Origin: a virus | Strand: one strand, 5' to 3' | IMG/VR virus record: IMGVR_UViG_3300003323_001224 | Coordinates: 1-64,000 of that record | DNA: 64,000 bases | In this document: piece by piece, positions 1,169-49,341 of the stretch | How positions within the stretch are numbered: position 1 is the first letter of the stretch | Layout of the letters: each line of letters opens with the position of its first letter | The notes under the pieces: model-generated | Database searches by the model: none | What the model was told of the DNA's origin: nothing | The model's input: only the letters and a program-made list of their open reading frames with translations | Program-made: the position numbers and the translations under genes

Positions 1169-1411
1169 ATGGGAAATAAAAAAGCAAGATGGACTGAGAA
1201 GGGGTTGGTTAGATTCGTCGCTGACGTGCCACCAGATATGGCGGAAGCGTTCGATGAATTATTGCTCCTAACAGGAGAAACGGAGCGCAAAAAAGGTTTT
1301 CAGAAATTCGTCACATGGGCCAGTCATTTTTCAAGATGGCAGGAATTCCTAAAGGAAATGAAATTAGAGTATTTAGAAAAAGCGCTGAAGGAGGAAAAGA
1401 AAAAACGATAA
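1169..1411 (+). CDS. hypothetical protein
   Basis: Packed ORF within the operon. Confidence 0.5.
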   Translation: MGNKKARWTEKGLVRFVADVPPDMAEAFDELLLLTGETERKKGFQKFVTWASHFSRWQEFLKEMKLEYLEKALKEEKKKR

Positions 1412-1435
1412 TCTTAAACCCTAAACGAACAATGT

Positions 1436-1771: not shown

Positions 1772-1784
1772 GCCGGTCCTACTT

Positions 1785-2363: not shown

Positions 2364-2701
2364 TATGGAGGGAATAAAAGATTTTCAATTAATTTTTTTA
2401 TGAGATCGCCTTCGCAGGGGTTTGGAGCGCAGTAGCAAACTAAAAAGATGTCATGCGTGGAAGCAGCCTTCACCATGCGACGAAATTCCGCAGATTGCGC
2501 GCTGGTTGCGTCTGCGAGTTTATCCAGCAACCAAGGGTTATACTTCTTCAGTGCCTCTTCACGCCCAGAGACGAAGTATCTGGCAGCTGTTTTTTTAGAG
2601 GAATTCCCCCAGCTGTATGGGTTGCCCATCACGCTACCACGACCAATATAAAAGTCATAGGCAGTAGGAATGTGCTTTTTCTTATTGACGACAGTGACCA
2701 A
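2363..2701 (-). CDS. DUF4326-like protein
   Basis: Motifs YIGRGSVMGNPY and LVCYCAPNPCEGD. Confidence 0.75.
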   Translation of the reverse strand: MVTVVNKKKHIPTAYDFYIGRGSVMGNPYSWGNSSKKTAARYFVSGREEALKKYNPWLLDKLADATSAQSAEFRRMVKAASTHDIFLVCYCAPNPCEGDLIKKLIENLLFPP

Positions 2702-2833
2702 TTATTTTACCGATTGAAAAGCCAAATATAAAACCACATAGCCAAAGCAGCCAAAGTGGTAAAACATGTATGACAAGATCAGAAATTATCATTCCAAGCA
2801 CAAAAGCCGCGGTATATGCAAAAGTAGTACGTG

Positions 2834-3949: not shown

Positions 3950-4377
3950 TATTTTAGCGTTTTAAAAATTGAAACATAATACTGCTCCAGGTATTTCCAG
4001 ACCGCATCCGATCCTTCCCGTACGAGCAGATCGAATACGGGTTCGGCTTGCAGATCGCTCCCATCCCCAAAGCACTTGCCACCAATCCATTCGCATTCAT
4101 GGAAGGGATGATCTTCTTCGTAATCATTTAAAGGAAGGGGGGAATGATAACTCAAAAAAGCGCCTTTTGGCCGAATGGATTTTCTTGCTTGCCTATCATA
4201 ATCCAACGACTCTATAAAAACATGGGGGAGATACCAATTAGTAAAAGCCGTAAAAGATACTGCACCTAAATCGCCTTTGAGCACCATAAATAAAGAGCAA
4301 TCACCTATGCCATAGTTCTTGCCAGGATTAGGATCGCGTTTATCCCATGCGGGTGATATTTGAATGATGCGTTCCAT
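3949..4377 (-). CDS. hypothetical phage protein
   Basis: Translationally coupled ORF. Confidence 0.55.
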   Translation of the reverse strand: MERIIQISPAWDKRDPNPGKNYGIGDCSLFMVLKGDLGAVSFTAFTNWYLPHVFIESLDYDRQARKSIRPKGAFLSYHSPLPLNDYEEDHPFHECEWIGGKCFGDGSDLQAEPVFDLLVREGSDAVWKYLEQYYVSIFKTLK

Positions 4378-4528
4378 TATTTCAATGCAGACGCTGAATA
4401 ATATTTTGCAGGGGATCGGCGAAGATTACTTTCTGCAAAAGATGTCATCACATTTCCAATTGATTCAGGGAGATGTTTGGCAGAGGTGGTGACAACCTGT
4501 TTCACCAGATCAGCCACCATCTCCCTTT

Positions 4529-4732
4529 CTAAAAAGGGACGACAGGAATTTTGATTTGATCCATTTGTTCCCGGTATTCGGCGGGAATCTGACTGGCAGC
4601 GAACATCAAAACCGACTGTTCATCCTTGGCAATATGCGAACGGATGTCTTGTACAATTTTTGGCTTTGCACCTTCTTCTTTGATTTGTTTTTCGGTAGGC
4701 TCGAAAAGAATGGCGTACTGATACAGTTTCAT
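4529..4732 (-). CDS. small hypothetical phage protein
   Basis: Coupled ORF. Confidence 0.5.
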   Translation of the reverse strand: MKLYQYAILFEPTEKQIKEEGAKPKIVQDIRSHIAKDEQSVLMFAASQIPAEYREQMDQIKIPVVPF

Positions 4733-5049
4733 ATATTAAAGTATTTAATGACATTATTCTCACCTTCAGGAACGAAACCGCGTTTTTCGATAAGATGCTT
4801 TTTGAATGGTTGGTTAAAAAATTCCATGATACGGAGGTTTCGTTTATCTCGCTTACAACTAGCTTCAAACCATTCGAGCACATCTTCAAAATGTCCATTT
4901 CCAGGTGTTCGGTTAAAAATGGCAATGATATCATACGAGGTGCCGGAATCATCATAGAGACCATAACAGGTTCCCACACGGAAAGAAATGCATCCAGTCA
5001 AAGAATGGTATGATGCTTCAAAATCCAAATTATGAGTAGTCCTGAACAT
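4729..5049 (-). CDS. hypothetical protein, possibly GNAT-like
   Basis: RTPGNGHF...LIEKRGF resembles GNAT motifs only weakly. Confidence 0.35.
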   Translation of the reverse strand: MFRTTHNLDFEASYHSLTGCISFRVGTCYGLYDDSGTSYDIIAIFNRTPGNGHFEDVLEWFEASCKRDKRNLRIMEFFNQPFKKHLIEKRGFVPEGENNVIKYFNI

Positions 5050-5193
5050 TCCATATAAAGACCTCCAGGGACTTCGGAGGCCGAGCGTAAAGACGCCCAG
5101 TCGCGCGTATCAAACAAAACGATGCCACCTCCCATGTAAAAGACAACAGCTGATGACCAATATATCAAAGAGCTGGCATTGCCCTTTGCGCAA

Positions 5194-6015
5194 TTATTTC
5201 ATCAGTCCTACATATTCATCTCTATATTGCTTCATCCAAGTATGATCATCATGCGGATAGATTGATTCGAATAAAGAGAAAATCCTATTAAAGTTTTCCT
5301 CTGTGTACCCTGGACGGGGTAGATGCGCATCGATGATATCCGGTGCAACTACCCAGCCATCCCGGTCAGCGCGGCGGGCCGCAAACTGCGTTCCAGGCTT
5401 GGCACGATCATGCTCTATTATGAGATCCGTCATGGCTGAAAGATGCTGGTAGGCGGTCTCCTGGTCCTTCGCCCAGTAGTTACCCCTAAAATGCTCCGCT
5501 TCCAGCTCGCCTAAAAGATCATCCAGGCATTTTTGCAGGATGCGTCCATTGATGCGCATAAAACTGCGCCAGCCAACAGCCGGGGCAATGATGTAACACA
5601 TAGGTACCTGTCCTTCAGGAACCAAATCAATACCTATCACATTGATCCAACCAGTATAATCGAATTGCTGCCAATATTCCTCGTTAAATACGCACATATC
5701 GGCATCAGAAGTTATTAGTATATCCGTTGGATCGATTTTGGGTATGGCTGCCGCATATAGGCGGGCGCACTGCGCATAGGTTGCTTGTTTATGCGGCGGA
5801 GCGCTAAATCGAAAAAAACGGGTTGTCGGTGCTATTTTGCTGCACCAACCATTAGCAAAGCCTAAACGTAATATTTCACCATCCGTCATTGCTGACGGCA
5901 TATCCGGGAATATTATAATACTGTCAATTCCCAGCTTATACCAGCTATAAACAGCAAAAGGAAGATTAAAGGCATACAGATCATCCGCCGTGCAACTCAG
6001 GATCGCTTTCATCAT
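5194..6015 (-). CDS. putative GT-A fold glycosyltransferase
   Basis: ITSDADM DxD motif, WAKDQE, and position in the glycosyltransferase cluster. Confidence 0.5.
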   Translation of the reverse strand: MMKAILSCTADDLYAFNLPFAVYSWYKLGIDSIIIFPDMPSAMTDGEILRLGFANGWCSKIAPTTRFFRFSAPPHKQATYAQCARLYAAAIPKIDPTDILITSDADMCVFNEEYWQQFDYTGWINVIGIDLVPEGQVPMCYIIAPAVGWRSFMRINGRILQKCLDDLLGELEAEHFRGNYWAKDQETAYQHLSAMTDLIIEHDRAKPGTQFAARRADRDGWVVAPDIIDAHLPRPGYTEENFNRIFSLFESIYPHDDHTWMKQYRDEYVGLMK

Positions 6016-8333: not shown

Positions 8334-8665
8334 CAGAGATTGAGTGTCGCGGTGTCGAACTTTGACTTATGAGTATGTTGATCAGATAAAGCAGCCGGTT
8401 CAGCATCTTTCGGCGCCTCAACGCTTTGTGCATTACCACTTGGCGCAGGTATTGCAGGCAAATCAACCGCGGTAGTTTCCTGGACCTCGTTCCCTTTAAT
8501 ATAATCATATGCTGCGTTCCAAATCGGCGCAATTAATTTCGGATCGGTGTTGTAGGAAAAAATACGTACAATGTCTAAGCGCAGCAGTTCATCAGCGCCA
8601 TTTGATTTTGATTTACGCGGCTGGCGAGGATTTTTGACCTGTGCAGCCTTTTTGGGTCTTGCCAT
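8333..8665 (-). CDS. hypothetical protein with basic N-terminus
   Basis: Coupled ORF. Confidence 0.5.
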   Translation of the reverse strand: MARPKKAAQVKNPRQPRKSKSNGADELLRLDIVRIFSYNTDPKLIAPIWNAAYDYIKGNEVQETTAVDLPAIPAPSGNAQSVEAPKDAEPAALSDQHTHKSKFDTATLNL

Positions 8666-8714
8666 GTAATGTATATTTTTTGATAGTTAAGAATCTTCTC
8701 CGCTATGCGTGATT

Positions 8715-8975
8715 TTATTCATATTGCCATGTCGCCGCCTTAACAGCATTCATCTGCGCATCTTCAGCATGCGAAATTGCCTTCGAATAATAACGTTTTG
8801 CCCCCTGACTTTCAGCCTTTGAACGCATATGGTCATGAAATTGAATGATAGCAGCATATTGCTGTTTAATCGCCTCAACAGTAGGATTGGAAGAAGGATT
8901 GAAGGTTATGCCTACTGCCTTCTCTCCAAAGGATAATTCCCTTGTCTCATTTTGAACGCTTTGATTTTCTGTCAT
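8715..8975 (-). CDS. Acb2/Tad1-like helical-hairpin protein (putative anti-defence nucleotide sponge)
   Basis: FGEKAVGITFNPS...KRYYSKAISHAEDAQMNAVKAATW pattern, recognised from memory. Confidence 0.5.
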   Translation of the reverse strand: MTENQSVQNETRELSFGEKAVGITFNPSSNPTVEAIKQQYAAIIQFHDHMRSKAESQGAKRYYSKAISHAEDAQMNAVKAATWQYE

Positions 8976-8985
8976 ATATTTGATT

Positions 8986-9294
8986 TTAGATGATAGCCCA
9001 CACATCGCTCATGATGCCGGTCGTTGGCCCGTTCATGAACTTATATATGATGCCGTTAAACTCCTGTTCCACACCTGTGCCTTTGGGATATAAAATCCGC
9101 TCTCCTGGCTGGAGGTAGGGCGCTACGTCTTCAGATACGATGATGACCGTCCCTTCTTCCAGTGGATTGTTATTGGCTAGTGGGATGATGATCCCGCGTA
9201 CCTCTTTTTCACGGGGCGCATCAGGTCGAACTAAAATTTTACTACCGATACATTTAACTTTTGGTTTATCTTGCTGTAATGAAACTACCTCCAT
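8986..9294 (-). CDS. groES: GroES/Cpn10 co-chaperonin
   Basis: KILVRPD, GIIIP, GTVIIV and LQPGERILY pattern. Confidence 0.75.
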   Translation of the reverse strand: MEVVSLQQDKPKVKCIGSKILVRPDAPREKEVRGIIIPLANNNPLEEGTVIIVSEDVAPYLQPGERILYPKGTGVEQEFNGIIYKFMNGPTTGIMSDVWAII

Positions 9295-9572
9295 ATATCG
9301 AGTTTAAATTCGTCGATCAATCAGATACTGACCTACTTTATGAGTGTGTCATGCAAACCGAAGAGCCTGGTTATTATGCGATCGTATGCAAAGCATATGA
9401 TCCTGGCCCCCCTCTTGAAGTTATTCACAGACAAGATGAGGTTATACAAATTGCTGGCTATGAAATTTACCTGTGGTTTCGCGGTTCCTTATTTAACAGA
9501 TATTTCGCCTTAATTACGCCGCAGCCCAAAATGGAGATACAAGAATTTCTATCTAAAATGGCCAATTGGTAT

Positions 9573-10004
9573 TTACTCAGCGTAATTGGGCAGCGACTTT
9601 CTGAATTCGAGCGTTTTCGCATGTAATTTTAAATTCAGGCAATTTCTTACCAGCCGCATTTTTCTAAGTAAATGCAGATCCCGATCAGCATCATGTTTAT
9701 CGAAAACCAAATGTAATCGTGCGCCATCGCGTTTGTAATCTTCCACTTTGCGGCGGGCAGCTATCATCATTTCCTTATAGCGTAGTGTTTTGCGATTATA
9801 CTCCGTATCCTCAATTCCAGCGTAAGTACAAATATCCTGCATGGTATATCCCCGTTCCTTAGCGCACGCAATAAAAACCATTCGCGCAGTGCCGGTATCG
9901 TGTTTATCAGCATCCCTTGCCGTCTGCAAAAATTCCAATCCAGTTCTATCAAGTACAAAATTCAACCGGATGGCATGTTCTATATCTTGCAACGTTACAT
10001 TCAT
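9573..10004 (-). CDS. hypothetical protein, possible HTH
   Basis: ARMVFIACAKERGYTMQDIC is an HTH-like segment; start uncertain. Confidence 0.4.
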   Translation of the reverse strand: MNVTLQDIEHAIRLNFVLDRTGLEFLQTARDADKHDTGTARMVFIACAKERGYTMQDICTYAGIEDTEYNRKTLRYKEMMIAARRKVEDYKRDGARLHLVFDKHDADRDLHLLRKMRLVRNCLNLKLHAKTLEFRKSLPNYAE

Positions 10005-10477
10005 CGAAGATTGCTTAATTTTTGCATGGTAGCTGTCACGGGGCTTAAAGCCCCCGCTCCTAGTGTCGGGCCATTTTTGTACCATTGCTTATCGAGCATA
10101 TCTGTGATCAAATTATTGGGCGATTCTCTTGCCCCCGCTATTGGACCTTGTCCTAATTGCCCCGTTCGCATAATTAAATCGTTAACCTCAGCGTCTTTCG
10201 ATCCCATATCATAAAAACGTTGAAGCCGCTGCTCCGGAGAAAGTGCTACCATATCTGGCCGCTGATTATGCGTGGTCATTTGAATTAACATTCTTCGGGC
10301 CAGATCCGGCCCGAGTTGTCCTCTCAAATAAGAATAAACGCTTTGCGCATTTTCATTAATGGTGCTCCAGTATCCTTTTCCTACAAATGAAGATAGCGCA
10401 TCGCGAACGTTCAGGTAGTCTTCCGGACGTAGAGGGCCACGAGGCGGAGTAACCGCTACTGGTGGCAATGGTCCCAT
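10001..10477 (-). CDS. hypothetical protein
   Basis: First ORF of the leftward operon. Confidence 0.5.
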   Translation of the reverse strand: MGPLPPVAVTPPRGPLRPEDYLNVRDALSSFVGKGYWSTINENAQSVYSYLRGQLGPDLARRMLIQMTTHNQRPDMVALSPEQRLQRFYDMGSKDAEVNDLIMRTGQLGQGPIAGARESPNNLITDMLDKQWYKNGPTLGAGALSPVTATMQKLSNLR

Positions 10478-10545
10478 AAAAAGAGAGATTTAAATGATAG
10501 ATAGGCGTTACAAAAATAATTAGTTTTGCGAGATAACAAAATAAA

Positions 10546-11172
10546 ATGCATAAAATAATTTCTGCACAAAATAAAATCATCGTACAGATTGAAAAGAAGT
10601 TTTATGATACCGTTGCTGCACCGGGCGGCATGCAATTTTACCAGGACACTACATTTAATCCGCAAGAATTTTCGATGATCGAAGCTACCGTTGTGTCTCC
10701 GCGCCCTCGCTGTGTATTGAATCGCCACGATTATTTTGGTTTTAATGAATTTCCCAACACCGGCGATACTGTCATGGTCCGATATGACATGGTATACGCA
10801 TATGTTGATCAGCCAGATCGCGCTACCGCCATCCACAAAAACGTTATACTGCATAATGACCAGGAATATTGGCGCGCTGATATCCTCCAGGTATTTGCCG
10901 TAAAAATTAACAAAGGTTGGCGGATGCTGAATCAATACGTAATGTGTGATTTGGTTCAACAGAAGCGGGATATCGGTGAAGTATTGATACTGCCTGAGCA
11001 CCTACGCACGGAAATTAGGCGGGATATAATGCGCGTAAGGCACATTACCCATCCTGCCATTACCCCCGGCTCCATTATATATTGCGCACCCAATGCCGCC
11101 CAGCAGTATAAAATTGGACAAGACGAGTTTTATATCATTAAGCAATCCCACATCCAAGGCGTAGCAGTGTAG
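10546..11172 (+). CDS. GroES-like (duplicated fold) phage protein
   Basis: ATVVSPRP...GDTVMVRY and ITPGSIIY...FYIIKQSHI resemble Cpn10 strands. Confidence 0.4.
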   Translation: MHKIISAQNKIIVQIEKKFYDTVAAPGGMQFYQDTTFNPQEFSMIEATVVSPRPRCVLNRHDYFGFNEFPNTGDTVMVRYDMVYAYVDQPDRATAIHKNVILHNDQEYWRADILQVFAVKINKGWRMLNQYVMCDLVQQKRDIGEVLILPEHLRTEIRRDIMRVRHITHPAITPGSIIYCAPNAAQQYKIGQDEFYIIKQSHIQGVAV

Positions 11173-11177
11173 AATGT

Positions 11178-11247
11178 AGTGTCTGTTTCGGTCGGATTTT
11201 GATGGAATAGTCTCGCATCGATATAATCGACCGGATTAATTTCGTCC
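11178..11247 (+). promoter_or_regulatory. putative late promoter, copy 1
   Basis: AGTGTCTGTTTCGGTCGGATTT, then TAATTTCG (variant of Bacteroidota -7 TAnnTTTG) starting 59 nt after the motif start, then ATG 3 nt later; same geometry as the copy at 30147. Confidence 0.55.
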
Positions 11248-11931
11248 ATGGCGCTCGATGCGGATTATAAATTCCTAAATTTTTGGGTCAATAAAGAACA
11301 AGGTGCCTACTTCTCCTTTGAGGAACTTGACCTCATAGTGGACAGGGCGCAGATGTCTTTGTATAATGACTATTATAATAAGTTCGGAGCAAGCCAGCGC
11401 CTGAACGATGCCTTAGCTCCTTTTAAAAAGGAGTTTATCTTCACGCAAGCCACCTGTCCGGATGGGCTTATTCTACTTCCAGATGAGTACCAGAACCTCC
11501 TCAGCGTTCATACCATCGTTCAGGATGCCCGGACAGGCTTGCCGGTAAATCGGCCAGTCCCTATTCTTAATGAGGATGAAAAAGTAGCAAGAGACAATAG
11601 CCAGATCTATCCGCCCAGCTTATGGGACCCTTACGGTATGATCACAGTGAATTGGGACATCCAGCTCTATCCGCAAAGCGCCATGGCGGGAAAAGTTTTT
11701 TACTTACGCAGACCACAGGCGCCATTTTATGCTTATTACATTGTAAGTGGACGTGTCCCCGTCTATGACCCCGTTAATTCGGTGCAATTGGAATGGGCAG
11801 AGAAGGATAAGGACTCTATTTTGATCAAAGCCCTTTCCTATCTAGGCATCAACATCAGCGAACAAGACATTATTCAATACGCTGAAATGAAAAGCGGCCA
11901 GAACCTGAGTAATTCACCAGATAAAATATAG
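11248..11931 (+). CDS. tail ring/adaptor protein (crAss-like)
   Basis: Size, position, and FYLRRP / ALSYLGINI motifs. Confidence 0.55.
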   Translation: MALDADYKFLNFWVNKEQGAYFSFEELDLIVDRAQMSLYNDYYNKFGASQRLNDALAPFKKEFIFTQATCPDGLILLPDEYQNLLSVHTIVQDARTGLPVNRPVPILNEDEKVARDNSQIYPPSLWDPYGMITVNWDIQLYPQSAMAGKVFYLRRPQAPFYAYYIVSGRVPVYDPVNSVQLEWAEKDKDSILIKALSYLGINISEQDIIQYAEMKSGQNLSNSPDKI

Positions 11932-11933
11932 GT

Positions 11934-12599
11934 ATGGCTACTACGAAATACCGATTGGCTGAGGAAATTATGCTGCTACTAAATGGCGGTAGAATCGGGG
12001 ATGCTTCCAAGTACCATATTCGCGAAATTATTATATCCGTATGCCAGGCGGCGAACCAGTTATTGAAATTAGAATATTTCAACACAACATTACCGATAGG
12101 AGAGATGATTCCCAGCGGTGCGGCAATTGCTACGTATGAAAATATTCTTGTGAAAAAATGGAGCAACACTAGTATGATAACGCTGCCTGCTATGCCATTG
12201 CGGCTACCTCGCAACATAGGCGTTTATCAAATCTTTCCGCAATCGGACTATTTCGCAGAATTTATTCCGATGAAATTGGAGCAGGCGGGATTGATCCGAT
12301 CGCAAGGTATCGTTAATGATTTATCTGGATACATCGGCTATGAAACGGCGGGTCTTGATGTCATATTCACCAAAGATTTGACGCTGCCCAATACAGACGT
12401 TTATGTGTCGGTGCGATTAGTGATATTGGATTTCACGCAATATGGAGATTGGGACCCGTTGCCGCTACCACCGGAAATGGAATGGCAGATCAAGCAGGAA
12501 GTAGTGAAGCTATATAGTATTGAAAAAATTCCGGATAAACTCGTTGAACCATTGGTCAAAGAGGGCAACGTACCTACTACGCAACAACAGCAAACATAA
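11934..12599 (+). CDS. tail ring protein
   Basis: Position between ring and muzzle genes; PLPLPPEM motif. Confidence 0.5.
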   Translation: MATTKYRLAEEIMLLLNGGRIGDASKYHIREIIISVCQAANQLLKLEYFNTTLPIGEMIPSGAAIATYENILVKKWSNTSMITLPAMPLRLPRNIGVYQIFPQSDYFAEFIPMKLEQAGLIRSQGIVNDLSGYIGYETAGLDVIFTKDLTLPNTDVYVSVRLVILDFTQYGDWDPLPLPPEMEWQIKQEVVKLYSIEKIPDKLVEPLVKEGNVPTTQQQQT

Positions 12600-25250: not shown

Positions 25251-27254
25251 ATGTATTATCCCATTGAGAACGGGACCGTGGAGGTCATACAGGACTATCC
25301 CTGTCAACTGCCCCCTGTTGGCTATGGAAAGAATAGGCTGACGGGCGAAGTGGAATACGTAGGTATTGTAAAGACCGATGCAAAGAAGGAAAAACAAAAA
25401 TGGAAAAGGTTTGAACTGCCGAAGGATTATGAGAAGAAAAAGAAACAGGAAGAGCAGCGCCAAAAGGAAGAACCAGATCATTATAATCCTGACCTGGAAA
25501 AGATCCGGACACAACATTGGAAATACCGCCTCTGCGGTTTTTGGTTATATATAAATGGCATACCGACCTACATTCCGCCGTCCTATTATATGTATCTGCA
25601 ATGGTGCCCGCTGGATATTGGTTACCCGGCTTATCGTGATACGGATAGGAGATTTTTTTATGTATGGGAATATTGCGTGGAAGATCCGCGCTGTGCTGGT
25701 CTGATTGATATTGAACGCCGACGGATGGGAAAAACCTATAAGAGCGGGTCTATATTACTAGACAGAACATCGATAGCCAGCCACCACCACGGCGGTATAC
25801 AAAGCAAGACAGGACAGGATGCCAAGGCGGTCTTTTTAAAGACAGTAGTTCCGTTTTTTAAAAAATACCCTGATTTCTTTCGGCCAGTATTTGATCAATC
25901 CAAGGGTATGTCACCGACCACTGAGCTAAGGTTTTTTCAGACCAGTATTAAAGGCAAACGCGCCAGCGAGATCGTCGATGCGCCTGAATTGGAATCATGG
26001 ATTGATTGGGGAACAGCAGAACCTTTTCATTATGACGGATCGAAGTTGAATACTTATGTGTGCGATGAATTTGGCAAAACCCTTGAATCGAGCGTTGTTG
26101 ACCGTTGGGATGTAGTCCGCTTCTGTTTAGATCAAGATGGAGATTGGTGCGGTAAAGCTCTCTTTACTTCTACAATAGAAGAGATGGAGAACGGCGGGGT
26201 AGATGCGAAAAAATTATGGGAAAATAGCAATCCCGCTGATAGAAATGAGAATGACAGAACCAAAACAGGACTATACAGATTTTTCTTACCTGCATACGAA
26301 ACGACATATTTTGATGAATATGGTATGCCAGAAGTTGAGAGAGCAAAAACTTTCTACCTGAATGAACGGGCGGGCTTGGTGAAGGACCCAAGACAGTTGT
26401 CATCTATCATTAGAAAGAATCCTTTCTCGATTGAAGAGGCATTTCGAATCGATGGAGATACGTGTTTATTCGATGCGATGAAATTAAATGATCAACTGGA
26501 TTTTTTGTCCTGGCGAGAGAACATAACAGAACGTGGAAACTTCGAATGGGAGAATGGAGAACGTTACACAAAAGTGGTTTGGAAGAAAAATGCGAACGGT
26601 AGATTTGAGATGCCTGTCGGTTTTCATTTCGACAATCCAAACGAAGTAAAAAAGATTAATGATCAGTTTATACCCCAGAATAATGTTCGGTTTGTATGCG
26701 GATGCGACCCTTTTAAATATGACCGCGTAAAAGATCAGCGCCGTTCCGATTGCGCGGCATTTGTATTCCAAAAATTCTCCCCAGGAGATGATACGTTTAA
26801 TGATTCGTTTGTTTGTAGATACAAACATAGGGCACCAACCACGGGCATGCAATATGATGATGTCATTAAGATGTGTTGGTATTTCGGCTGTCAGTGCCTT
26901 TTTGAATGCAATATCGATAACTGGAAAGAATATTTTAGGAATGCACATTGTTGGGCATTCCTGATGATCTTACCTGGAGAATCAGATCCGGGTCTTTACG
27001 CCGATGGAGGCGGTAAAACCCATCAGCTAATATGCGACTTGACTGAAGATTATATTGATAAGAATATTAAAAAGGTACTGTTTAAAGCGATGATTGAGGA
27101 TTGGTTGCTGTTTAAGTTGGACAAGACAACCGACTTCGATGAAACCATGGGCGCCGGCTATACATTGATTGCAGCTCGAAAGAAGCTCTACAGAAAAAAT
27201 GGAGATATCCAGCGTGACCTGACAGACTTTTTCAGAATTTATAAAGCAAGTTAA
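25251..27254 (+). CDS. terL: terminase large subunit
   Basis: Walker A RRRMGKT, Walker B YVCDEFGK, nuclease motifs GCDP and FDETMG. Confidence 0.9.
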   Translation: MYYPIENGTVEVIQDYPCQLPPVGYGKNRLTGEVEYVGIVKTDAKKEKQKWKRFELPKDYEKKKKQEEQRQKEEPDHYNPDLEKIRTQHWKYRLCGFWLYINGIPTYIPPSYYMYLQWCPLDIGYPAYRDTDRRFFYVWEYCVEDPRCAGLIDIERRRMGKTYKSGSILLDRTSIASHHHGGIQSKTGQDAKAVFLKTVVPFFKKYPDFFRPVFDQSKGMSPTTELRFFQTSIKGKRASEIVDAPELESWIDWGTAEPFHYDGSKLNTYVCDEFGKTLESSVVDRWDVVRFCLDQDGDWCGKALFTSTIEEMENGGVDAKKLWENSNPADRNENDRTKTGLYRFFLPAYETTYFDEYGMPEVERAKTFYLNERAGLVKDPRQLSSIIRKNPFSIEEAFRIDGDTCLFDAMKLNDQLDFLSWRENITERGNFEWENGERYTKVVWKKNANGRFEMPVGFHFDNPNEVKKINDQFIPQNNVRFVCGCDPFKYDRVKDQRRSDCAAFVFQKFSPGDDTFNDSFVCRYKHRAPTTGMQYDDVIKMCWYFGCQCLFECNIDNWKEYFRNAHCWAFLMILPGESDPGLYADGGGKTHQLICDLTEDYIDKNIKKVLFKAMIEDWLLFKLDKTTDFDETMGAGYTLIAARKKLYRKNGDIQRDLTDFFRIYKAS

Positions 27255-27782
27255 ATGGAACAAGAAGTTTGGAAAGACATCCAGGGCTATGAAGGATATT
27301 ATCAAATTTCGAATCTCGGCAGGTGCAAATCTTTAGCGAAGACTGTTCGTGGTAGGCGTGGCGCACTTGCGGAGAGGATATTAAAGCCACAATTTAATGG
27401 GCATTATTATCACCTCAGATTATCAAAGGATTCAATTTGCATGATGCATCTTTTGCATCGACTAATTGCTACGGCTTTTATCCCTAATCCTAAAAATCTT
27501 CCAGTAGTCAATCATTTAGATGGGGATAAGCTAAATAACAAAGTTTCAAATTTGGAATGGACAACTATTGGTGATAATACGCGGCATGCCATTAATGAGC
27601 TGGGAATTGTCTTGGGTGGTGAAAAACATCATGCAGCTAAGCTGACAGAAAAGAAAGTTAAGAAAATAATAGAGCTGGCAAATACAGGCCTATCCCATAG
27701 CAAAATAGCTAAAATGTTCAGTGTCAGCAGGCCGAATATAAGTTATATCGCTAGGGGTGCGACGTGGAAACATGTAAAATAA
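27255..27782 (+). CDS. NUMOD4-HNH homing endonuclease
   Basis: WKDIQGYEGYYQISNLGR and HRLIA..F..VNHLDGDKLNN..NLEW, plus C-terminal HTH. Confidence 0.9.
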   Translation: MEQEVWKDIQGYEGYYQISNLGRCKSLAKTVRGRRGALAERILKPQFNGHYYHLRLSKDSICMMHLLHRLIATAFIPNPKNLPVVNHLDGDKLNNKVSNLEWTTIGDNTRHAINELGIVLGGEKHHAAKLTEKKVKKIIELANTGLSHSKIAKMFSVSRPNISYIARGATWKHVK

Positions 27783-34075: not shown

Positions 34076-35320
34076 ATGGCAGATCTGTCACAATACATAT
34101 CTATTGCTGTAGTGTTGGACAAAAGCCAACCAAGCCCCATTTTTCGTATTGTTGATAATAGCAACTATCCGCTGGGTGTGGCGCAAACGATTGCGGGGAT
34201 CTTGAGTGTAACCCAGCCAGATAATATTACCATTCAGAATACGGATTTCTCACAGCCAGATATATACTGGAATACGAGTGCCCTCGTACCTGCTGATCTT
34301 GAGCTGAGATTAGATAATACGGGCAGCTTCCAAAGAGGAGGCAGCGGCTATCGTATTATTTATACAGTTCGGGCGCCTGGGTATGATGATACTATTTTGA
34401 CGAAAGTCTTTTCGCTTTCTTACACTCCTCCTGCCATTGTCATCACCAATAATTTTGATATATTCACGCCGGATCTATCCGTCCAAGATAGCACCAACTA
34501 CAACCAATTATCCCTAGATTTTATTTCCGTTGTCAGGGCGTGGTTAGCGAACATTATTTCTGTTGAAGGCACCACGCAAATCATCAGCGGGACCGATCAG
34601 GTGTTCGATCTCAATTATCTTGGGAGTTACTACGACTCCCAATATGATATTACCCTATCCATCACTCCTCAATGGCGCTTACAGGGGACATCCAATTTTG
34701 TTACGATCATCGATGAATTGGCCGATGACATTACGCTCTATGCGCAAATACCGCCTTCATTAGCTGACCTACAAGTAGACCTTGCGACACTCAAAAGTGA
34801 ACTTGATGCAGCAGTCTGTGATTGCAATTTATACCGCATATTGTTTGATCGATACAATTTAGCTAATTCCATCTATTCGCAATTGGTGGCAAGAGGACAG
34901 GCAGGGTCGTTGTCTGGATTGGATGTATATATATATCAACTGGAAAAGATTTTCAATAATAATGTTAACCCCACCTATGAAAACACGAATGAGATAATTC
35001 CGGCTTATGACTGGAATACCGGTGGCGGAGGCAGTGTGGCTTGGACCAATATAACCGGAAAGCCCAGTTCTATCACTGTTGAATGGGTCGTCGGGCAAAT
35101 GGGGTATCCTGGTGAAGGGGCGACTACTTACACGAATACTAATATGGTCAATGTACCCGTAAGTAGGATTTATGTTTTTCGAAACGGATTTCCGCAATTC
35201 TCCTCCAATCCGCCAGATGGAGACACCTATTACACTAAGAATCTTGCTGATAACTTCCTGACTTTTTCGGTAGCGTTGGGTCTAAACGAAAAAATTATCA
35301 TACTCATACTTCCTCTATAA
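34076..35320 (+). CDS. virion structural/tail hub protein
   Basis: Beta-rich, with the fibre-type motif VAWTNITGKP; contains a CRISPR protospacer. Confidence 0.5.
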   Translation: MADLSQYISIAVVLDKSQPSPIFRIVDNSNYPLGVAQTIAGILSVTQPDNITIQNTDFSQPDIYWNTSALVPADLELRLDNTGSFQRGGSGYRIIYTVRAPGYDDTILTKVFSLSYTPPAIVITNNFDIFTPDLSVQDSTNYNQLSLDFISVVRAWLANIISVEGTTQIISGTDQVFDLNYLGSYYDSQYDITLSITPQWRLQGTSNFVTIIDELADDITLYAQIPPSLADLQVDLATLKSELDAAVCDCNLYRILFDRYNLANSIYSQLVARGQAGSLSGLDVYIYQLEKIFNNNVNPTYENTNEIIPAYDWNTGGGGSVAWTNITGKPSSITVEWVVGQMGYPGEGATTYTNTNMVNVPVSRIYVFRNGFPQFSSNPPDGDTYYTKNLADNFLTFSVALGLNEKIIILILPL

Positions 35321-40974: not shown

Positions 40975-41225
40975 AAAGAGTCCCATTGCTGGGACTCTAC
41001 CCTTGAAAACATACATGTATCTCGAAATAGCCATTAAAATTCAAAAATAAAGTTGGATTTTCAAAAAATATTTTTTTCCTTTGCTGAGATATGAATTGTT
41101 GTAACACGATATTTGTTTTCTCATCCCTCCCGCCGCAAGTCGTTAGGCGACCGGGAGGGTAATGTTGTTTTTCTTCTGGCTGAAGAATACCCCAGCCCCG
41201 GCAGCAATGCTGGGGTTCTTTTTTT

Positions 41226-41301
41226 CGGGTAGTGCGGAAGTGGTCATCCTCCGTGCCTTGGAAGCACGGCAACGCTGGTTCGAATCCAGTCTACCCGACC
41301 A
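41226..41301 (+). tRNA. tRNA-Pro(TGG)
   Basis: Acceptor CGGGTAG/CTACCCG; anticodon arm CGTGC-CT-TGG-AA-GCACG; TTCGAAT; encoded CCA. Confidence 0.85.
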
Positions 41302-41390
41302 GGAAGGTATGCCAGGCGGTTGGTAGCGCCAGCCTGTCTTGAAAACAGGAACCCATTCAGTTGGGCGGGGTTCGAATCCTCTGCCTTCCG
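41302..41390 (+). tRNA. tRNA-Ser(TGA)
   Basis: Anticodon arm CCTGT-CT-TGA-AA-ACAGG; long variable arm; TTCGAAT. Confidence 0.75.
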
Positions 41391-41396
41391 CAAATG

Positions 41397-41424
41397 AAAA
41401 GGGCACCTTGTTTTTGGTGCCCTT
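41397..41424. terminator. hairpin terminator (U-tract on minus strand)
   Basis: aaaaGGGCACC-ttgttttt-GGTGCCC. Confidence 0.65.
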
Positions 41425-41445
41425 GTAGCGAGAGCGGGAATCGAA
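41425..41445 (-). repeat. duplicate of the tRNA-Met 3' end (candidate attP core)
   Basis: GTAGCGAGAGCGGGAATCGAA matches 41898-41918 at 20/21. Confidence 0.6.
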
Positions 41446-41476
41446 GCGGTGCTGCCCGATCATGCAGCCCAGGCTC

Positions 41477-41896
41477 CTATTGCACTTGCTCTGAACTTAC
41501 ATATTCCGGTCTATCAAACGCGTCTCTTCTACGACAAGATATCTCAAAATTTTTCTTTTGATCGTTCCATTTTACTGTAATCATGAACTGTCCTGGTAGC
41601 CATTGCTGCTCTGTACAATGCAAATATCCGTGATCAGCCGGCGCATATCTGCCTGCAATGTAATAATAGATCGAGTCGCCTAATCCATGGCGCCTCTCTA
41701 TTCGAACCCATTTACCAGGCGTTAACAAGATTCCGTTAAGCTCTTGTTCACCATGCAAGGCGCAGCCAAATTCGAGATACTTTTTGTCCAGGTTCATCAC
41801 CCATAAAGTATCTACTTGGTTACACATTGTAGCAGAATGCTGTGCGGATGCGGTGTAACTCATCAGCACAACAAGTACTGTTGCGATCATTCTCAT
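41477..41896 (-). CDS. secreted hypothetical protein
   Basis: Signal peptide ending TASA-Q; flanked by tRNA 3'-end repeats. Confidence 0.6.
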   Translation of the reverse strand: MRMIATVLVVLMSYTASAQHSATMCNQVDTLWVMNLDKKYLEFGCALHGEQELNGILLTPGKWVRIERRHGLGDSIYYYIAGRYAPADHGYLHCTEQQWLPGQFMITVKWNDQKKNFEISCRRRDAFDRPEYVSSEQVQ

Positions 41897-41897
41897 A

Positions 41898-41972
41898 GTA
41901 GCGAGATCGGGAATCGAACCCGAGACCTTTGAGTTATGAATCCAATGCTCTTACCATCTGAGCTATCTCGCC
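41898..41972 (-). tRNA. tRNA-Met(CAT), elongator type
   Basis: GGCGAGATAGCTCAG...TT-CAT-AA...GGTTCGATTCCCGATCTCGCTA. Confidence 0.85.
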
Positions 41973-41995
41973 TTTAAATGCAAGATAGCAAAAAA

Positions 41996-43363
41996 TTAAA
42001 ATTTCCTTGAAAAATCATGCTCCATATTTCCTAGCATAAGGCCTAACCCATCCTTTAAATATTCTTCCGTCATGCTGGGTGTAGCATGCCCGCAGTATTG
42101 TTGGATAAGCGCAATAATAACCCCCCCCATGTACATATGGATGCAGCGGGTATGCTTCCAGGAATAATTAGTTAATTTAGGTGAAAATCCTCCAGGCTCC
42201 CGTACTTCATCCCTGAATTTGTCGCTAAAAAAAGCGCGATTCGTAGGGACCGGTCCCGGTGGCCCATCTATACCAAAGATGTAGTAGTGACCCGGACAAT
42301 CCTTTAAACCCATTCTGATAAAAAGTTCTATCAGTTCCGGTTCCATGTGAATGAATCTGCCGCGCCCCTTTTTTGCCTTTTCGTCGGGAATCATTAATTT
42401 ATTTCGACCCCAAAGAATATTTTCCACTTGTAAGTTACGTGTTTCCTTATCAGGCCGGGTGCCCGTGTAGTATATTACCTCACTAAAATCATGCAGGTAT
42501 TTTCCCCAATAAGGGACAGCCAGAATTGCCTTTTTCACAGCCGGTATGATACTATCTTCAAAAGGAGTATGCCTGATCTTAGTTCCCTTCCTCATCAACT
42601 CGACACCTTCAGCAGGGCTTTTGCTTATAATCTGTAGTTCGTCTTTACAATAATTAAAAAATGTAACAAACTTTTTTACCTTATCATTGTATGTCAAAGG
42701 CGCCCATTCCTTTTCCTCTCTCTTTGCCGCGAGAAAATCTTCCAGGTCATCTTGCGTGAAGGTCGCAATATCATCATACCACTGGCTTTCTTCCAATAGC
42801 GTATTTTTAGCTATATGCTTTTTCAACAAATTCAAGGGCACTGCATATGACTTTCGGTTCACTTCATCATAGTGTTGCAAAAAAAGCTCACTGGCCGCAT
42901 TCAAGGTAATGACCTGCTTTTTAGCTTTCTTTTCTGCCTCTTGTTCGGCTAAGATCCTATTATACTCGTCTATCTCATATTGGAATGGGCTGAAGCCATT
43001 CTCTAGCTCTTTAAGCATGGTGGCCAACAGCTGGAGCGCAAATTCAGGGTCCTGCGCGACTCCTTTGAAAACGCGAAAACGTTCCCATTCTCCCGGCGCA
43101 TTGTGTCGCTGTTGCAATACGGGCGGTAGCCCAGGAGGCACCTTAAAATAGTATTCAATATACTTTTTCTTCCCCTCAACGAGCTTGGGCGGTTTCCAGG
43201 TTATGTATTTTCCCGTTGACACTTTTTTGGCAATTTCCTTTGTCAAAAATACGAACTTTTTGATTTTCAGGTCTTTGTTTTTTTTAGGGTTGATCGCGTG
43301 TATCAACTCGGCATTTTCGACTTCCGGAGTATTGCTGATTTTCAGCGCTTTAGATTTTTGCAT
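41996..43363 (-). CDS. int: tyrosine recombinase/integrase
   Basis: Catalytic motifs YYTGTRP (R), YSWKHT and CGH..SMTEEY (Y); start at MQKSK. Confidence 0.9.
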   Translation of the reverse strand: MQKSKALKISNTPEVENAELIHAINPKKNKDLKIKKFVFLTKEIAKKVSTGKYITWKPPKLVEGKKKYIEYYFKVPPGLPPVLQQRHNAPGEWERFRVFKGVAQDPEFALQLLATMLKELENGFSPFQYEIDEYNRILAEQEAEKKAKKQVITLNAASELFLQHYDEVNRKSYAVPLNLLKKHIAKNTLLEESQWYDDIATFTQDDLEDFLAAKREEKEWAPLTYNDKVKKFVTFFNYCKDELQIISKSPAEGVELMRKGTKIRHTPFEDSIIPAVKKAILAVPYWGKYLHDFSEVIYYTGTRPDKETRNLQVENILWGRNKLMIPDEKAKKGRGRFIHMEPELIELFIRMGLKDCPGHYYIFGIDGPPGPVPTNRAFFSDKFRDEVREPGGFSPKLTNYSWKHTRCIHMYMGGVIIALIQQYCGHATPSMTEEYLKDGLGLMLGNMEHDFSRKF

Positions 43364-43471
43364 GGTGATCTTTTTTAGGCGATTTTGGCAATTTTTTGAC
43401 AATTTTTCTGAGCCAAATCTACATCGAATTCGCCATTTCTGCAATTAAATCCGGAGGATTTTACAATTAGG

Positions 43472-45740
43472 GTTGTGAATTCCTTTTAAAATTGAACGCT
43501 CAGTAACTAGAATACAAACTGATGTTCAACCTTTACTGTTGTAATTACATTTACAAAAAGTGCATTCAACATTGATACATATTACGGCAAGCAACATGAA
43601 TGTTGTGACTTCCTTTTCAAACATATTATTTAGGGAGGGCAATAAAATAAGATGGATTATAAAGCATTATAGTCGTACTATCCTTAGTACGCTACTAAGC
43701 TTGCGTTGTGACTTCCTTGTTCAGTGGTTCAATATCTTGCGATCTTCTCTAAAAAACAACAGTCAATGAGTGGCCAAAACTCTGGCAGTTGTGAATTCCT
43801 TTCAAAATGGATTTTCCTACAACCCAAGCTGCGTAGGTAAACCTTCCTGTTGTTGTGATTTCCTTTTAAATAGATGCAGCCTACAATTCCCCTTCAACTA
43901 ACTTTCAAAGCCATATAACCATTTTCTCGTTGTGATTTCCTTTTAAATAGATGCAGCCTACAACTGGTGAGTAGGTTGTTGTTTCCGAGGAGCAGTTGTG
44001 ACTTCCTTTCAAAATTAAGCTTCCTACAGCCAACCTCCTCTATCCTTATATTCCTGAGTTGTTGTGACTTCCTTTCAAAATTGAGCTTTCTACAACAAAT
44101 GCTTAAAATTGGATTCCATAGCCATAGTTGTGAATTCCTTTCAAAATTAAGCTTCCTACTACTGGACAGGGCCTGGGGTAACAGGACATAGGTTGTGATT
44201 TCCTTTCAAAATTAAGCTTCCTACAAAGTATAGCTTTTTGGATATTTTTCACGGTAGTTGTGACTTCCTTTCAAAGGAAAGGTTCTTGCAACTTTCATAG
44301 GTGGGGTTTACATTGTTATCGAGTTGCGACTTCATTTCAAAAATTGAGGTTGATACAAATGGCGCCCCTGGACAAGTTCTTTGTCACCGTTGTGACTTCC
44401 TTTCGAAATCAAGCTTTCTACAACCCTAGCCCACATAGGCACGGGATACCATTGGTTGTGACTTCCTTTCGAAATTAAGCTTTCTACAACTCATTAATCC
44501 TGCCTCCGCTTATCGTTCCTGTTGTGAATTCATTTCAAAATTAAGCTTCCTACAACAATTATGGCAAATATATATAACGACTCCTAAGTTGTGACTTCCT
44601 TTCAAAATTAAGCTTCCTACAACCCCTGGCGATTAACGTGACGTCCCATTAATGTTGTGACTTCCTTTCAAAATTAAGCTTCCTACAACCAAACAATGTC
44701 ATACTTTTATAATTAACTCGTTGTGACTTCCATTCAAAATTAAGCTTCCTACAACTAAGTTCACGAACATCATATGAAGATAGGAGTTGTGACTTCCTTT
44801 CAAAATTAAGCTTCCTACAACCAGCCGACGGGCGGCTATTTAAATAGGTTTGTTGTGACTTCCTTTGAAAATAAAGCTTCCTACAACAGTCAGCCCAATT
44901 ATAAGAGATACACCTATGTTGTGACTTCCTTTAAAAATAAAGCCTCCTACAACTTACCAAAACCAGTGACAACAACGGGACGTGTTGTGACTTCCTTTCA
45001 AAATTAAGCTTCCTACAACAATGTTCGATCATTCCTTTTTTGAAAGTACGTTGTGACTTCCTTATAAGCTTCCTACAACCGGCGCATGGCATGGGTACGC
45101 AAATGAAGTGTTGTGACTTCCTTTCAAAATTAAGCCTCCTACAACACATCAGCAGCGCAGATACCGGCAATTGCCGTTGTGACTTCCTTTCAAAATTAAG
45201 CTCCCTACAACAAAAATGAAAAAGGTTTACAATGTCTCGTAGTTGTGACTTCCTTTCAAAATAAAGCTTCCTACTACGGTCGATGTTTTGATAAGTCATC
45301 ACTCATAGTTGTGACTTCCTTTGAAAATAAAGCTTCCTACAACTGTTGTGAGCAACTACGTATAGGCGTGCTCTGTTGCGACTTCCTTTAAAAATAACCT
45401 TCCTACAACAGCGTGCCCAAGATCAGCTACGACGCCAATGTTGTGACTTCCTTTCAAAATTAAGCTTCCTGCAACCAGCAACCAATCCTCAATCATTGCT
45501 TTGAAGTTGTGACTTCCTTTCAAAAATAAGCTTCCTACAACAGGACCTGATAACAGGCCACACGACATTACGTTGTGAATTCCTTTCAAAATTAAGCTTC
45601 CTACAACCGAGATCCTTTTCACGTCAAACGACCAGCAGGTTGTGAATTCCTTTCAAAATTAAGCTTCCTACAACAGGCCCAGTCCGCTCCCGTCCGTCAG
45701 CCGCGTTGTGAATTCCTTTCAAAATTAAGCTTCCTACAAC
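43472..45740 (-). CRISPR. CRISPR array, ~34 repeats of 36 nt, ~30-nt spacers
   Basis: Plus-strand consensus GTTGTGA(C/A)TTCCTTTCAAAATTAAGCTTCCTACAAC with ~66-nt period. Repeats degenerate toward 43472, so the leader is on the right and transcription is on the minus strand. Confidence 0.97.
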
Positions 45741-45834
45741 CTGTTTCGCTAGAAAGCACACCTCTCCTGCATTACAGCCTATATTGTCACAATAAAAATG
45801 CGAAACATTCTCGAAAAAATGAGAATAATAAATT
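45741..45834 (-). promoter_or_regulatory. CRISPR leader
   Basis: Largely AT-rich non-coding stretch next to the most uniform repeats. Confidence 0.55.
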
Positions 45835-45915
45835 AAAAAAAGGATTCAGGAGTGCTTCACGGCCTCCCGCTCAGGACGTACAACCGCCCCCTAATATTTT
45901 CAAAGAACTTGATGA
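45835..45915 (-). ncRNA. candidate tracrRNA/scaffold
   Basis: Two hairpins, a GUUGUA loop and a UGAAUCCUUUU tail complementary to the repeat 3' end. Confidence 0.5.
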
Positions 45916-45919
45916 GATT

Positions 45920-47014
45920 TTATTGTATCAAAAGTTCAATCCCAAACTTTTTGCATTTGTATTGTATCATGTTTATCAATCCATGATACGACCAGTTTCT
46001 TAACAAGAACTGATTTTTTGGATCTTTCGCTTCCTCCTCTTTCTCCTTCTGATCAACGAGAATCAATTTGCCGCATCGATATGCGACGCACAAATCTACC
46101 AATTTCTTACTATAACTGTGCAATTTGGTCTGCACATAATGTCTTTCTTCTTCAGAGAAACGTTCAGTGGCTTGCAGCTTCCGTTTTCTACCTTTGCCTC
46201 CTTTGTTGAACCGAGCGGCTCTTTGCGCTCTTCTTAGTCCCTCTTGTATACTAATTCTACCGTATAAGAACTCATCTTTGGTCCCGATGGATAATTCCTT
46301 TCTATTTACTTTGGCCACAATAGGTACATCCAGGCTGAGAGAAGCTGTCATAGCAACGTCCACATCCAAAACTACTGGTTTTTTTTCAATTTCAAAGACT
46401 GCTAATAAAAAAATTTTCTTTTTCTTCAACTGTATAGAACTATCGCAAAGAGAATGTATGCCTTTCAAAGCTTCCTCCATCAGCAACCGGTTATTGCTAA
46501 AGTCATAACCGAAATGCGTTCGAAACGGAATGCCCCACACTTCAAATTTGTAATTTTCGCTGTCTTCAGATAAAGACCAATTGCGCATAAGAATAGTTGG
46601 CAGCGGCATTGGAATGTCTCGGCGATAGGTTCGCAAAGCGCGCTTTCCGGAAAAATATTCCTTCCGCTCCTTGCTAATGTTTGCTGTGACGAGGTTGTTT
46701 ATCGCAGAAACACTTGCCATTGGCGCCTCGCCCTTGAACTTTTTTGAATTTACCTGGTAGGTTGTATTGGGACGGCTCGTAGTTAATATCCCCTCTTCCG
46801 CTTTAATTCTATCCTTCAATGTGATTTTGAAATCATCATGAAGATAAAAGAATTCGGAAATATTTTCCTGAAAATATTGATGGGTGGCCGTGTGGTTAGC
46901 AGCCCTAAATATTATTTCATTCCATTTGCGCAATTTTGCATAATTATCTTTAAACTCTTTTTTATCAGAATCTATAAATAATTGAATTTTTCTTGTTATG
47001 ATATTTTTAGCCAT
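45920..47014 (-). CDS. cas12f: nuclease-dead Cas12f/TnpB-family RNA-guided protein
   Basis: ITRKIQL, GGKGRKRK, HSYSKKLVD..CGKL and LLRNWSY..IQYK..GI motifs. RuvC-I GxDLG is replaced by ASLSL, RuvC-II Glu by LILVDQ, and the protein ends before the zinc finger and RuvC-III. Confidence 0.8.
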   Translation of the reverse strand: MAKNIITRKIQLFIDSDKKEFKDNYAKLRKWNEIIFRAANHTATHQYFQENISEFFYLHDDFKITLKDRIKAEEGILTTSRPNTTYQVNSKKFKGEAPMASVSAINNLVTANISKERKEYFSGKRALRTYRRDIPMPLPTILMRNWSLSEDSENYKFEVWGIPFRTHFGYDFSNNRLLMEEALKGIHSLCDSSIQLKKKKIFLLAVFEIEKKPVVLDVDVAMTASLSLDVPIVAKVNRKELSIGTKDEFLYGRISIQEGLRRAQRAARFNKGGKGRKRKLQATERFSEEERHYVQTKLHSYSKKLVDLCVAYRCGKLILVDQKEKEEEAKDPKNQFLLRNWSYHGLINMIQYKCKKFGIELLIQ

Positions 47015-47873: not shown

Positions 47874-47944
47874 GGTGCGGTCGCCGGATTCGAACCGATC
47901 TTTAGGGTTATGAGCCCTATGTGCTGCCGTTACACTACCCCGCA
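47874..47944 (-). tRNA. tRNA-Met(CAT), initiator-like
   Basis: Anticodon arm TAGGG-CT-CAT-AA-CCCTA with three consecutive G-C pairs; TTCGAAT. Confidence 0.75.
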
Positions 47945-47952
47945 AAATTACA

Positions 47953-48025
47953 GTTCTCCCTACGGGATTCGAACCCGTGATGACGCCGTGAAAGGGCGCC
48001 GACTTAACCGCTTGTCGAAGGGAGC
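47953..48025 (-). tRNA. tRNA-Glu(TTC)
   Basis: Anticodon arm GCGCC-CT-TTC-AC-GGCGT; GGTTCGAATCC. Confidence 0.85.
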
Positions 48026-48138: not shown

Positions 48139-48458
48139 AATAGGGGCAGGTCGTATCCTGCCTGCCCCCAATCATTGTTACGGTTTACAAGACCGCTGCT
48201 GATAATGAGTCAGCTGGCAAATTGAAGTTTTCAAACAGCCTAATGCTCATGCTGTCGTCTGACGATCTACCATCTGATCTACCCCCCCTCCGGGGCGGCT
48301 GCTCCGGAGGGGGGGACAGGACTCGAACCTGCGACTTTCAGATTACCGACTGCTTGACTTCAACAAGTGAAACTTAGCTTAAAGCTTTTGACGCAATGCT
48401 TACGCTCATATCTAGGATCTGTTTAAGCTGATGCTAAAGCTAAAGCTTTGTCAAAGAT
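48139..48458 (-). ncRNA. candidate ~320-nt structured RNA with a circularly permuted tRNA-like domain
   Basis: tRNA 3' half precedes the 5' half at 48251-48353; AGC hexamer repeats; terminal hairpin at 48143-48169. Confidence 0.65.
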
Positions 48459-49267: not shown

Positions 49268-49341
49268 GTTCCGCAACCACGGATCGAACGTGGCACTCCC
49301 TGCTTAAAAGGCAGGTGCTCTAACCACTGAGCTATTGCGGA
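49268..49341 (-). tRNA. tRNA-Lys(TTT)
   Basis: Anticodon arm CCTGC-CT-TTT-AA-GCAGG; GTTCGATCC. Confidence 0.85.

Follow-up and report, generated by a model that had tools for sequence, protein, structure and literature searches.

Why would a phage carry, in a CRISPR array of its own, a spacer that comes within two letters of matching its own terminase gene? The question is raised by the window analysed here, the first 64 kb of a 76,638-bp IMG/VR record (IMGVR_UViG_3300003323_001224) that CheckV scores as complete. The phage comes from soil or roots, and its integrase gene marks it as temperate. Next to the array lies the gene of a protein related to nuclease-dead Cas12f (dCas12f), and an initial annotation of the window had proposed that the spacer came from a close relative and that its mismatches would spare self. 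The features at issue are as follows.

43472..45740, minus strand: CRISPR array, ∼35 direct 36-nt repeats and 34 spacers, most of them 30 nt long
45476..45505, minus strand: terL-matching spacer, fourth from the leader end, between two 36-nt repeats
25251..27254, plus strand: terL, terminase large subunit (phrog_6681, E 8e-90)
27081..27110, plus strand: self-like protospacer in terL, aligned without gaps at 28/30 to the reverse complement of the spacer
27078..27080, plus strand: 5' flank CTG of this protospacer (...GGTACTG in guide sense)
45741..45834, minus strand: A/T-rich leader that separates the first repeat from the tracr-like RNA, its polarity taken from the repeats
∼45835..45892, minus strand: tracr-like scaffold RNA, formed of two hairpins and a tail with a terminal U run
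45920..47014, minus strand: dCas12f gene (364 aa), adjoining the clean end of the array

We read this locus, with a probability of about 0.5, as a phage-borne, binding-only CRISPR system that excludes sibling phages. The terL spacer would have been copied from the coding sequence of a phage ∼92–93% identical to the carrier, most likely a sibling that a lysogen had encountered. The spacer was presumably added by host adaptation proteins; adaptation in trans is presumed because the phage is without cas1. Expressed from the prophage, a complex of CRISPR RNA (crRNA), tracr-like RNA and dCas12f would bind the sibling's terL beside a target-adjacent motif (TAM) in the form of a 5' G, with this motif turned towards the approaching RNA polymerase. 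An essential late gene of the sibling would thereby be silenced or obstructed without cleavage, giving RNA-guided superinfection exclusion, and the carrier's own terL, which differs in the seed and at an early R-loop checkpoint, would be bound weakly. We infer each of these steps (prophage expression, adaptation in trans, binding, silencing and self-sparing) from the features described below.

The match itself can be read directly from the DNA. The 28/30 match reported in the initial annotation was reproduced as an ungapped alignment, and in 100 dinucleotide-preserving shuffles of the window no match with ≤3 mismatches was seen. Relatives of terL carry a terminase annotation in Flavobacteriia phages. 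Both differences from the spacer, at 27083 and 27089, fall at third codon positions and, as originally described, are synonymous, leaving FKAMIEDWLL unchanged. With a minus-strand reading of the array, in which the guide follows the repeat on its 3' side, they become guide positions 3 (27083) and 9 (27089), and the last G of the CTG flank fits the 5'-G TAM of characterised dCas12f. The guide then has the same sense as the terL mRNA. This had been taken to point to DNA rather than RNA as the target; the sense is confirmed, and the dCas12f family binds DNA. An HNH endonuclease gene (27255–27782; phrog_59, E 3e-50) lies between terL and the portal gene and starts 145 nt downstream of the self-like protospacer.

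What kind of effector would use this guide? The 364-aa protein aligns with PDB 9n9c_A, 'Nuclease-deactivated Cas12f', over residues 7–363 on 9–364 (E 1.4e-91), and more weakly with active Cas12f chains; in the columns of one of these, 9nzo_B, the RuvC-I Asp (GVDLG) is replaced by Ser and the RuvC-II Glu by Val. The protein ends in ...GIELLIQ, where the zinc finger and RuvC-III would begin. All members of a 20-homologue alignment share this short C-terminus (...GIELIVE), stopping before both elements, and their catalytic columns are not conserved. The intact RuvC D-E-D triad and zinc finger of active type V-F Cas12f are, in short, absent from the phage protein. Pfam gave no match in the protein, and NCBIfam gave a sub-threshold match to NF040570 (guided_TnpB, 6e-14) and a weak one to Cas12f2, both of which stop at its last residue. 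By these alignments, the effector is a member of the dCas12f family (Hoffmann et al., Nature 2026, PMC13472631; 9n9c structure in 10.1101/2025.06.10.658880) and not a cutter. The type V character originally given to the guide is borne out by a neighbouring gene that is a Cas12f derivative and by a guide lying 3' of the repeat on the minus strand. Because the effector is nuclease-dead, 'sparing self' here means avoiding binding or silencing, not cleavage.

A protein search returned 513 homologues. Among the best 120 of these 513, nearly all are ∼365 aa long, and the closest are 89% and 67% identical to the phage protein. A genome scan found 320 loci in Bacteroidota species genomes. The closest bacterial homologues, at 44–48% identity, belong to the Chitinophagaceae, a placement that, like the root-metagenome habitat, does no more than hint at the host.

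The strand and architecture of the guide RNA follow from comparison of homologous loci. In these, a conserved element lies just after the gene and consists of two hairpins (1 and 2) joined by a short linker and followed by a tail. In some loci the element is followed by long single-guide units; in eight viral contigs, several Sphingobacteriaceae loci and the phage, it is followed by a U-rich stop and a true CRISPR array. An alignment of 17 elements (the phage and 16 related loci) contains compensatory changes at 7 of the 11 pairs, and the phage copy keeps all pairs. Hairpin 1 has a loop that is complementary to the final 5–6 nt of the repeat in its own locus and covaries with it across loci (GTTGCA/TGCAAC, GCTGTA/TACAGC, GTTCGG/TCGAAC; GTTGT/ACAAC in the phage), and the scaffold tail pairs with a GAAAGGA stretch in the middle of the repeat. 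Going by these pairings, the guide is a split tracr/crRNA, formed from a tracr-like RNA and the repeat. Because the scaffold–repeat pairing covaries, we read the array on the minus strand, repeat 5' and guide 3', which independently supports placement of the terL mismatches at guide positions 3 and 9. The tracrRNA and array are co-oriented with the effector gene, as in type V-F, and the cognate scaffold has a 3' guide, as in dCas12f. A BLAST search for a long anti-repeat elsewhere in the phage found none, the actual anti-repeat being short and bipartite, and Rfam yielded neither a CRISPR nor a guide-RNA family. The effector, the scaffold and the covariation led us to reject a plus-strand reading of the array as type II-C or VI-B.

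Where did the spacer come from? Two further spacers resemble sequences of the same genome.

44822..44851, minus strand: second self-like spacer, matching genome positions 73264–73293 (outside the window) at 28/30, flank CTG, guide mismatches 11 and 20
44293..44322, minus strand: third self-like spacer, matching 34953–34982 at 27/30
34953..34982, plus strand: third self-like protospacer, in a structural-module open reading frame (ORF, 34076–35320), flank TTT, guide mismatches 3, 8 and 14

The three self-like spacers are 90–93% copies of coding sequences of the carrier. They contain seven differences in all, six at third codon positions and six synonymous; the exception is one N to D change, in the 34953–34982 site, whose other two differences are synonymous. 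By chance, at least six of seven differences would fall at codon position 3 with a binomial P of ∼0.007. This coding pattern is directly evident and means that the donor was coding sequence; by that pattern, it is sequence ∼92% identical to the phage genes, from a sibling phage or an ancestor. Noise or spacer decay as the source of the self-like spacers is ruled out by the same third-position pattern. Diverged relatives do co-occur with the phage: contigs from one root-metagenome study include pieces identical to it, among them the array around the terL spacer, and other pieces only 87–90% identical (e.g. 39 differences across 291 nt of portal-gene sequence). Three root-metagenome contig sets were considered, and their coverage leaves out 27081–27110. 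Beyond this phage, the arrays of five other viral records with dCas12f contain no long self-match.

Would the carrier's own sites be bound? Characterised dCas12f recognizes a 5'-G TAM and requires a TAM-proximal seed that pairs perfectly, with six nucleotides used as a filter (PMC13472631). Binding proceeds through a 7-bp partial R-loop, a checkpoint at positions 8–9 and a 14-bp full R-loop (PMC13472631; 10.1101/2025.06.10.658880), and the Fta protein, a homologue 47% identical to that of the phage, tolerates mismatches at positions 11–12 (10.1101/2025.06.10.658880). Measured against these rules, the self terL site, with its G flank and mismatches at 3 and 9, should be a poor target and is probably bound weakly. 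The 34953 site (T flank, mismatches at 3, 8 and 14) should likewise be a poor target. The initial annotation had placed the two terL mismatches in the PAM-proximal seed (PAM, protospacer-adjacent motif), and they do lie within the region where the characterised homologue needs pairing, making it plausible that self is spared at terL.

Polarity adds to this picture. The site at 73264–73293 lies in the last 26 nt of a function-unassigned gene, just before a terminator-like hairpin, and its TAM-distal end faces the transcribing polymerase. For roadblocks formed by dCas9 or dCas12a, a TAM-distal end towards the polymerase is the non-blocking polarity. The two seed-mismatched sites, terL and 34953, have the blocking polarity and fall within late genes. 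The pattern across the sites (n = 3) fits selection against harmful self-silencing.

Several results weigh against the interpretation as sibling exclusion. The 73293–73264 site combines a G flank with a perfect 10-nt seed, its first mismatch being at position 11, and is probably bound by the phage's own complex; because it keeps both TAM and seed, self-avoidance is not general, and the original claim that the mismatches spare self may hold for terL at most. All seven mismatches fall within guide positions 1–20, making for a weak TAM-proximal bias (P ∼0.05). A G flank (CTG) is present at two of the three self-like sites and TTT at the other. Residues that contact the TAM are partly unlike those of the Fta protein (R90 to Q, H110 to N), and hence a G TAM is only putative for the phage protein. 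A perfect-match relative, which the initial annotation had suggested seeking in viral databases, did not appear in any collection searched (IMG/VR, INPHARED and Joint Genome Institute (JGI) metagenomes): exact scans of four spacers against IMG/VR gave no matches, and blastn of the array against INPHARED gave none, nor did the array of a related viral contig. Relatives of terL in IMG/VR and JGI metagenomes have 42–80% protein identity and agree with the spacer at only 15–21 of 30 positions at the homologous site. The donation by a close relative is favoured by the coding-type differences, with an ancestral self origin possible because no perfect-match relative was found. The remaining 29 spacers had no match in anything searched.

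Might the self-like guides instead act on the phage itself? On this account, the main rival, to which we give a small share of the probability, the dCas12f–crRNA complex binds the carrier's own late region and damps late genes in the lysogen. In a variant that involves a host sigma-E partner, transcription would start near 27126, ∼46 bp downstream of the TAM and before the genes of the HNH endonuclease and the portal. Characterised members of the family regulate genes by way of partial matches of 13–14 bp (PMC13472631), and the 73293–73264 site retains what such binding calls for. Another dCas12f phage of the related viral group, 96 kb in length (G005), provides an apparent parallel: the first 13 nt of its guide at 16582, the seed, recur exactly at 12185 and 22548, at two of its own gene starts (ATT-ATG-GCA-ACA-A...), with ∼0.003 such matches expected per site. 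This guide may represent genuine self-regulation in that phage. In the phage studied here, however, position 3 is a mismatch at both the terL and the 34953 site, the latter of which also has no G flank, and the sites fall within coding sequence instead of at promoters. The 73293 site, for its part, is at a gene end before a terminator-like hairpin, in the non-blocking polarity. Moreover, TAM-proximal seed matches of 10–13 nt to the phage's own genome were not enriched relative to reversed or shuffled guides.

The sigma-E variant is also at odds with the position of the phage protein within its family. Directly upstream of dCas12f, 58 of 65 bacterial loci have an ORF of 240–310 aa; of those sampled, five of five contain Sigma70 region 4 and three of five also region 2. 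The phage lacks this operon partner, a sigma-E factor with a C-terminal extension (rpoE) that is usually accompanied by hth. No Sigma70_r2 domain was detected in the 76.6-kb genome, only a weak r4-like helix-turn-helix (HTH) ∼19 kb away, and the small ORFs upstream of the phage gene had no Pfam or PHROG match. In a quick maximum-likelihood tree, one clade (support 99) unites the sigma-E-linked homologues. Outside this clade is the phage protein, on a long branch whose placement is uncertain, beside 11 IMG/VR proteins and a pair from the Chitinophagaceae. In the two Chitinophagaceae loci (L014:2810–5971 and L016:2706–5963), dCas12f comes directly after an AcrB-type resistance–nodulation–division (RND) efflux gene, with no sigma factor. 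At 8 of the 11 viral loci, the scaffold is followed by a CRISPR array, mostly a mini-array of 2–5 repeats.

A second alternative, about as improbable as self-regulation, is that dcas12f, tracr RNA and array were captured together from a bacterial host and are functionless passengers, the self-like spacers being a historical trace. The array is long for its group (∼35 repeats, compared to 2–5 in most related viral loci) and shows wear. Its repeats are clean at the high-coordinate, leader-proximal end and degenerate towards 43472; ∼10 leader-distal repeats, from 43472 to ∼44360, have decayed, with irregular spacer lengths of 28–67 nt, and the repeat at 45050–45079 has lost 6 nt internally, being 30 nt long instead of 36. 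The adaptation genes typical of a type V-F locus are not evident, in that no Cas1 is encoded in the 76.6-kb genome, cas2 and cas4 not having been searched separately. The bacterial homology noted above, to the Chitinophagaceae, would also suit a capture. However, the gene is intact and full length, the scaffold RNA has lost none of its pairs, and the leader-proximal repeats are undamaged. The same architecture recurs across the viral group, and a degenerate pattern of the phage repeat had no matches in 185,579 GTDB species genomes scanned, or in viral contigs.

That a host type II-C Cas9 reads the plus strand of what would be an orphan viral array exploiting host machinery is very improbable: the first 18 nt of one repeat variant on the plus strand (44192–44209) match, at 17/18, the start of a 47-nt repeat in a Ginsengibacter metagenome-assembled genome (MAG), and the mismatches are PAM-proximal in that reading too, but the likeness is marginal (E ∼0.7 for the repeat alone), the repeat lengths differ (36 vs 47 nt), the phage has no anti-repeat for the plus strand, and covariation backs the minus strand. 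The Ginsengibacter MAG has, on one contig (G013:C55), a large array (900–5400) and cas9 (8554–12528), and it also encodes dCas12f. The repeat likeness could reflect shared adaptation machinery or chance.

How does a binding-only system aimed at siblings compare with known ones? Protein family, CRISPR-linked sub-cluster, viral arrays that target siblings and binding-only type V systems have all been published. So far, the one characterised role of dCas12f is that of a chromosomal gene activator with sigma-E, its CRISPR-linked relatives without sigma-E having been noted but not studied further. Those Bacteroidota proteins (PMC13472631; 9n9c) belong to the same family as the phage protein, with 365 aa compared to 364, the same C-terminal truncation and lost RuvC residues, and, like it, have a guide 3' of a scaffold ending in ...ACAAC. 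They use a G TAM, and the phage has a G flank at two of three sites. They differ in having rpoE/hth, whereas the phage-encoded protein has neither and lies outside their clade, and in using a single guide RNA with a 14–16-nt guide, whereas the phage has a tracr-like RNA and a true array with 30-nt spacers.

Closer in organization is the rpoE-less, CRISPR-associated dCas12f cluster (PMC13472631, Extended Data Fig. 1a,b). Like the phage locus, it is without sigma-E and has an adjacent CRISPR array, a scaffold between gene and array, and a Chitinophagaceae connection; the AcrB-adjacent loci described above match this published cluster and branch beside the phage protein. Its members have been proposed to act as repressors (PMC13472631). 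They are chromosomal, with guides proposed for efflux-pump promoters, whereas the phage system has a temperate carrier, and its recognisable spacers copy phage late genes.

Precedents for the proposed target and mechanism come from viral arrays aimed at related viruses and from binding-only Cas12m on mobile elements (PMC11656645). In the viral mini-arrays of SPV1 and SPV2 (PMC11656645), the spacers that can be identified come from viruses closely related to the carrier, implying competition between viruses, as is proposed here. Those arrays have one or two spacers and depend on host repeats and effectors, whereas the phage has its own non-cutting effector, a tracr RNA and ∼34 spacers. Repeats identical to those of a host CRISPR system, a trait of viral-competition arrays, were not found for the phage in the GTDB species genomes scanned, the nearest being the marginal 17/18 type II-C likeness. 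Cas12m (type V-M), together with type IV systems on plasmids and prophages (PMC11656645), shares the proposed mechanism, binding competitors without cleavage; compared by description, Cas12m is a different Cas12 lineage of ∼600 aa, with no such tracr-like RNA. TldR (10.1101/2023.11.30.569447), like the phage dCas12f, is a phage-encoded, truncated, nuclease-dead protein of TnpB lineage with a guide RNA. Unlike the phage system, it has one fixed omega-RNA guide, directed against the host fliC promoter, and no CRISPR array or phage-derived spacers.

Taken alone, a viral spacer that resembles a relative's terminase is the expected pattern. In the literature, we found no paper that places dCas12f in phages or reports self-like spacers in such arrays. 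If sibling exclusion is correct, nuclease-dead type V systems may mediate phage-versus-phage exclusion by silencing, and one or two seed mismatches may separate self from sibling. More tentatively, one could envisage an adaptive, non-cutting form of superinfection immunity in which lysogens record siblings and silence their late genes, with selection shaping which self-like guides are tolerated. The locus also represents a compact natural dual-RNA dCas12f for tools of the CRISPR interference (CRISPRi) type.

In the phage, the array is bordered on its far side by an integrase gene:

41996..43444, minus strand: tyrosine integrase (PF00589 8e-10, phrog_1 4e-25), directly beyond the array

Five tRNA genes (41226–41298, 41899–41972, 47876–48025, 49269–49341) flank the integrase and dCas12f module, and a sub-threshold match to YrlA (Y RNA-like) is present at 48256–48340 on the minus strand. 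A low-depth contig from one root-metagenome run joins 41081 to 46406, with 23 other letters between. This joined form, which would be without tRNA, integrase, array, tracr RNA and the 3' part of dcas12f, could be a relative lacking the cassette or an assembly artefact.

None of the genes neighbouring dCas12f in the phage is common to other viral loci. In seven viral contigs of one clade (L097–L103), dCas12f is accompanied by a conserved ORF of 68–92 aa (∼75 in most), located 70–450 nt upstream in six loci and 271 nt downstream in L099; it has no counterpart beside the phage dCas12f in the window. In another dCas12f locus (L116:10150–10700), a 13-repeat array is followed by a tandem duplicate of the last ∼56 dcas12f codons, the scaffold and the beginning of the array, and one spacer of this locus is present twice.

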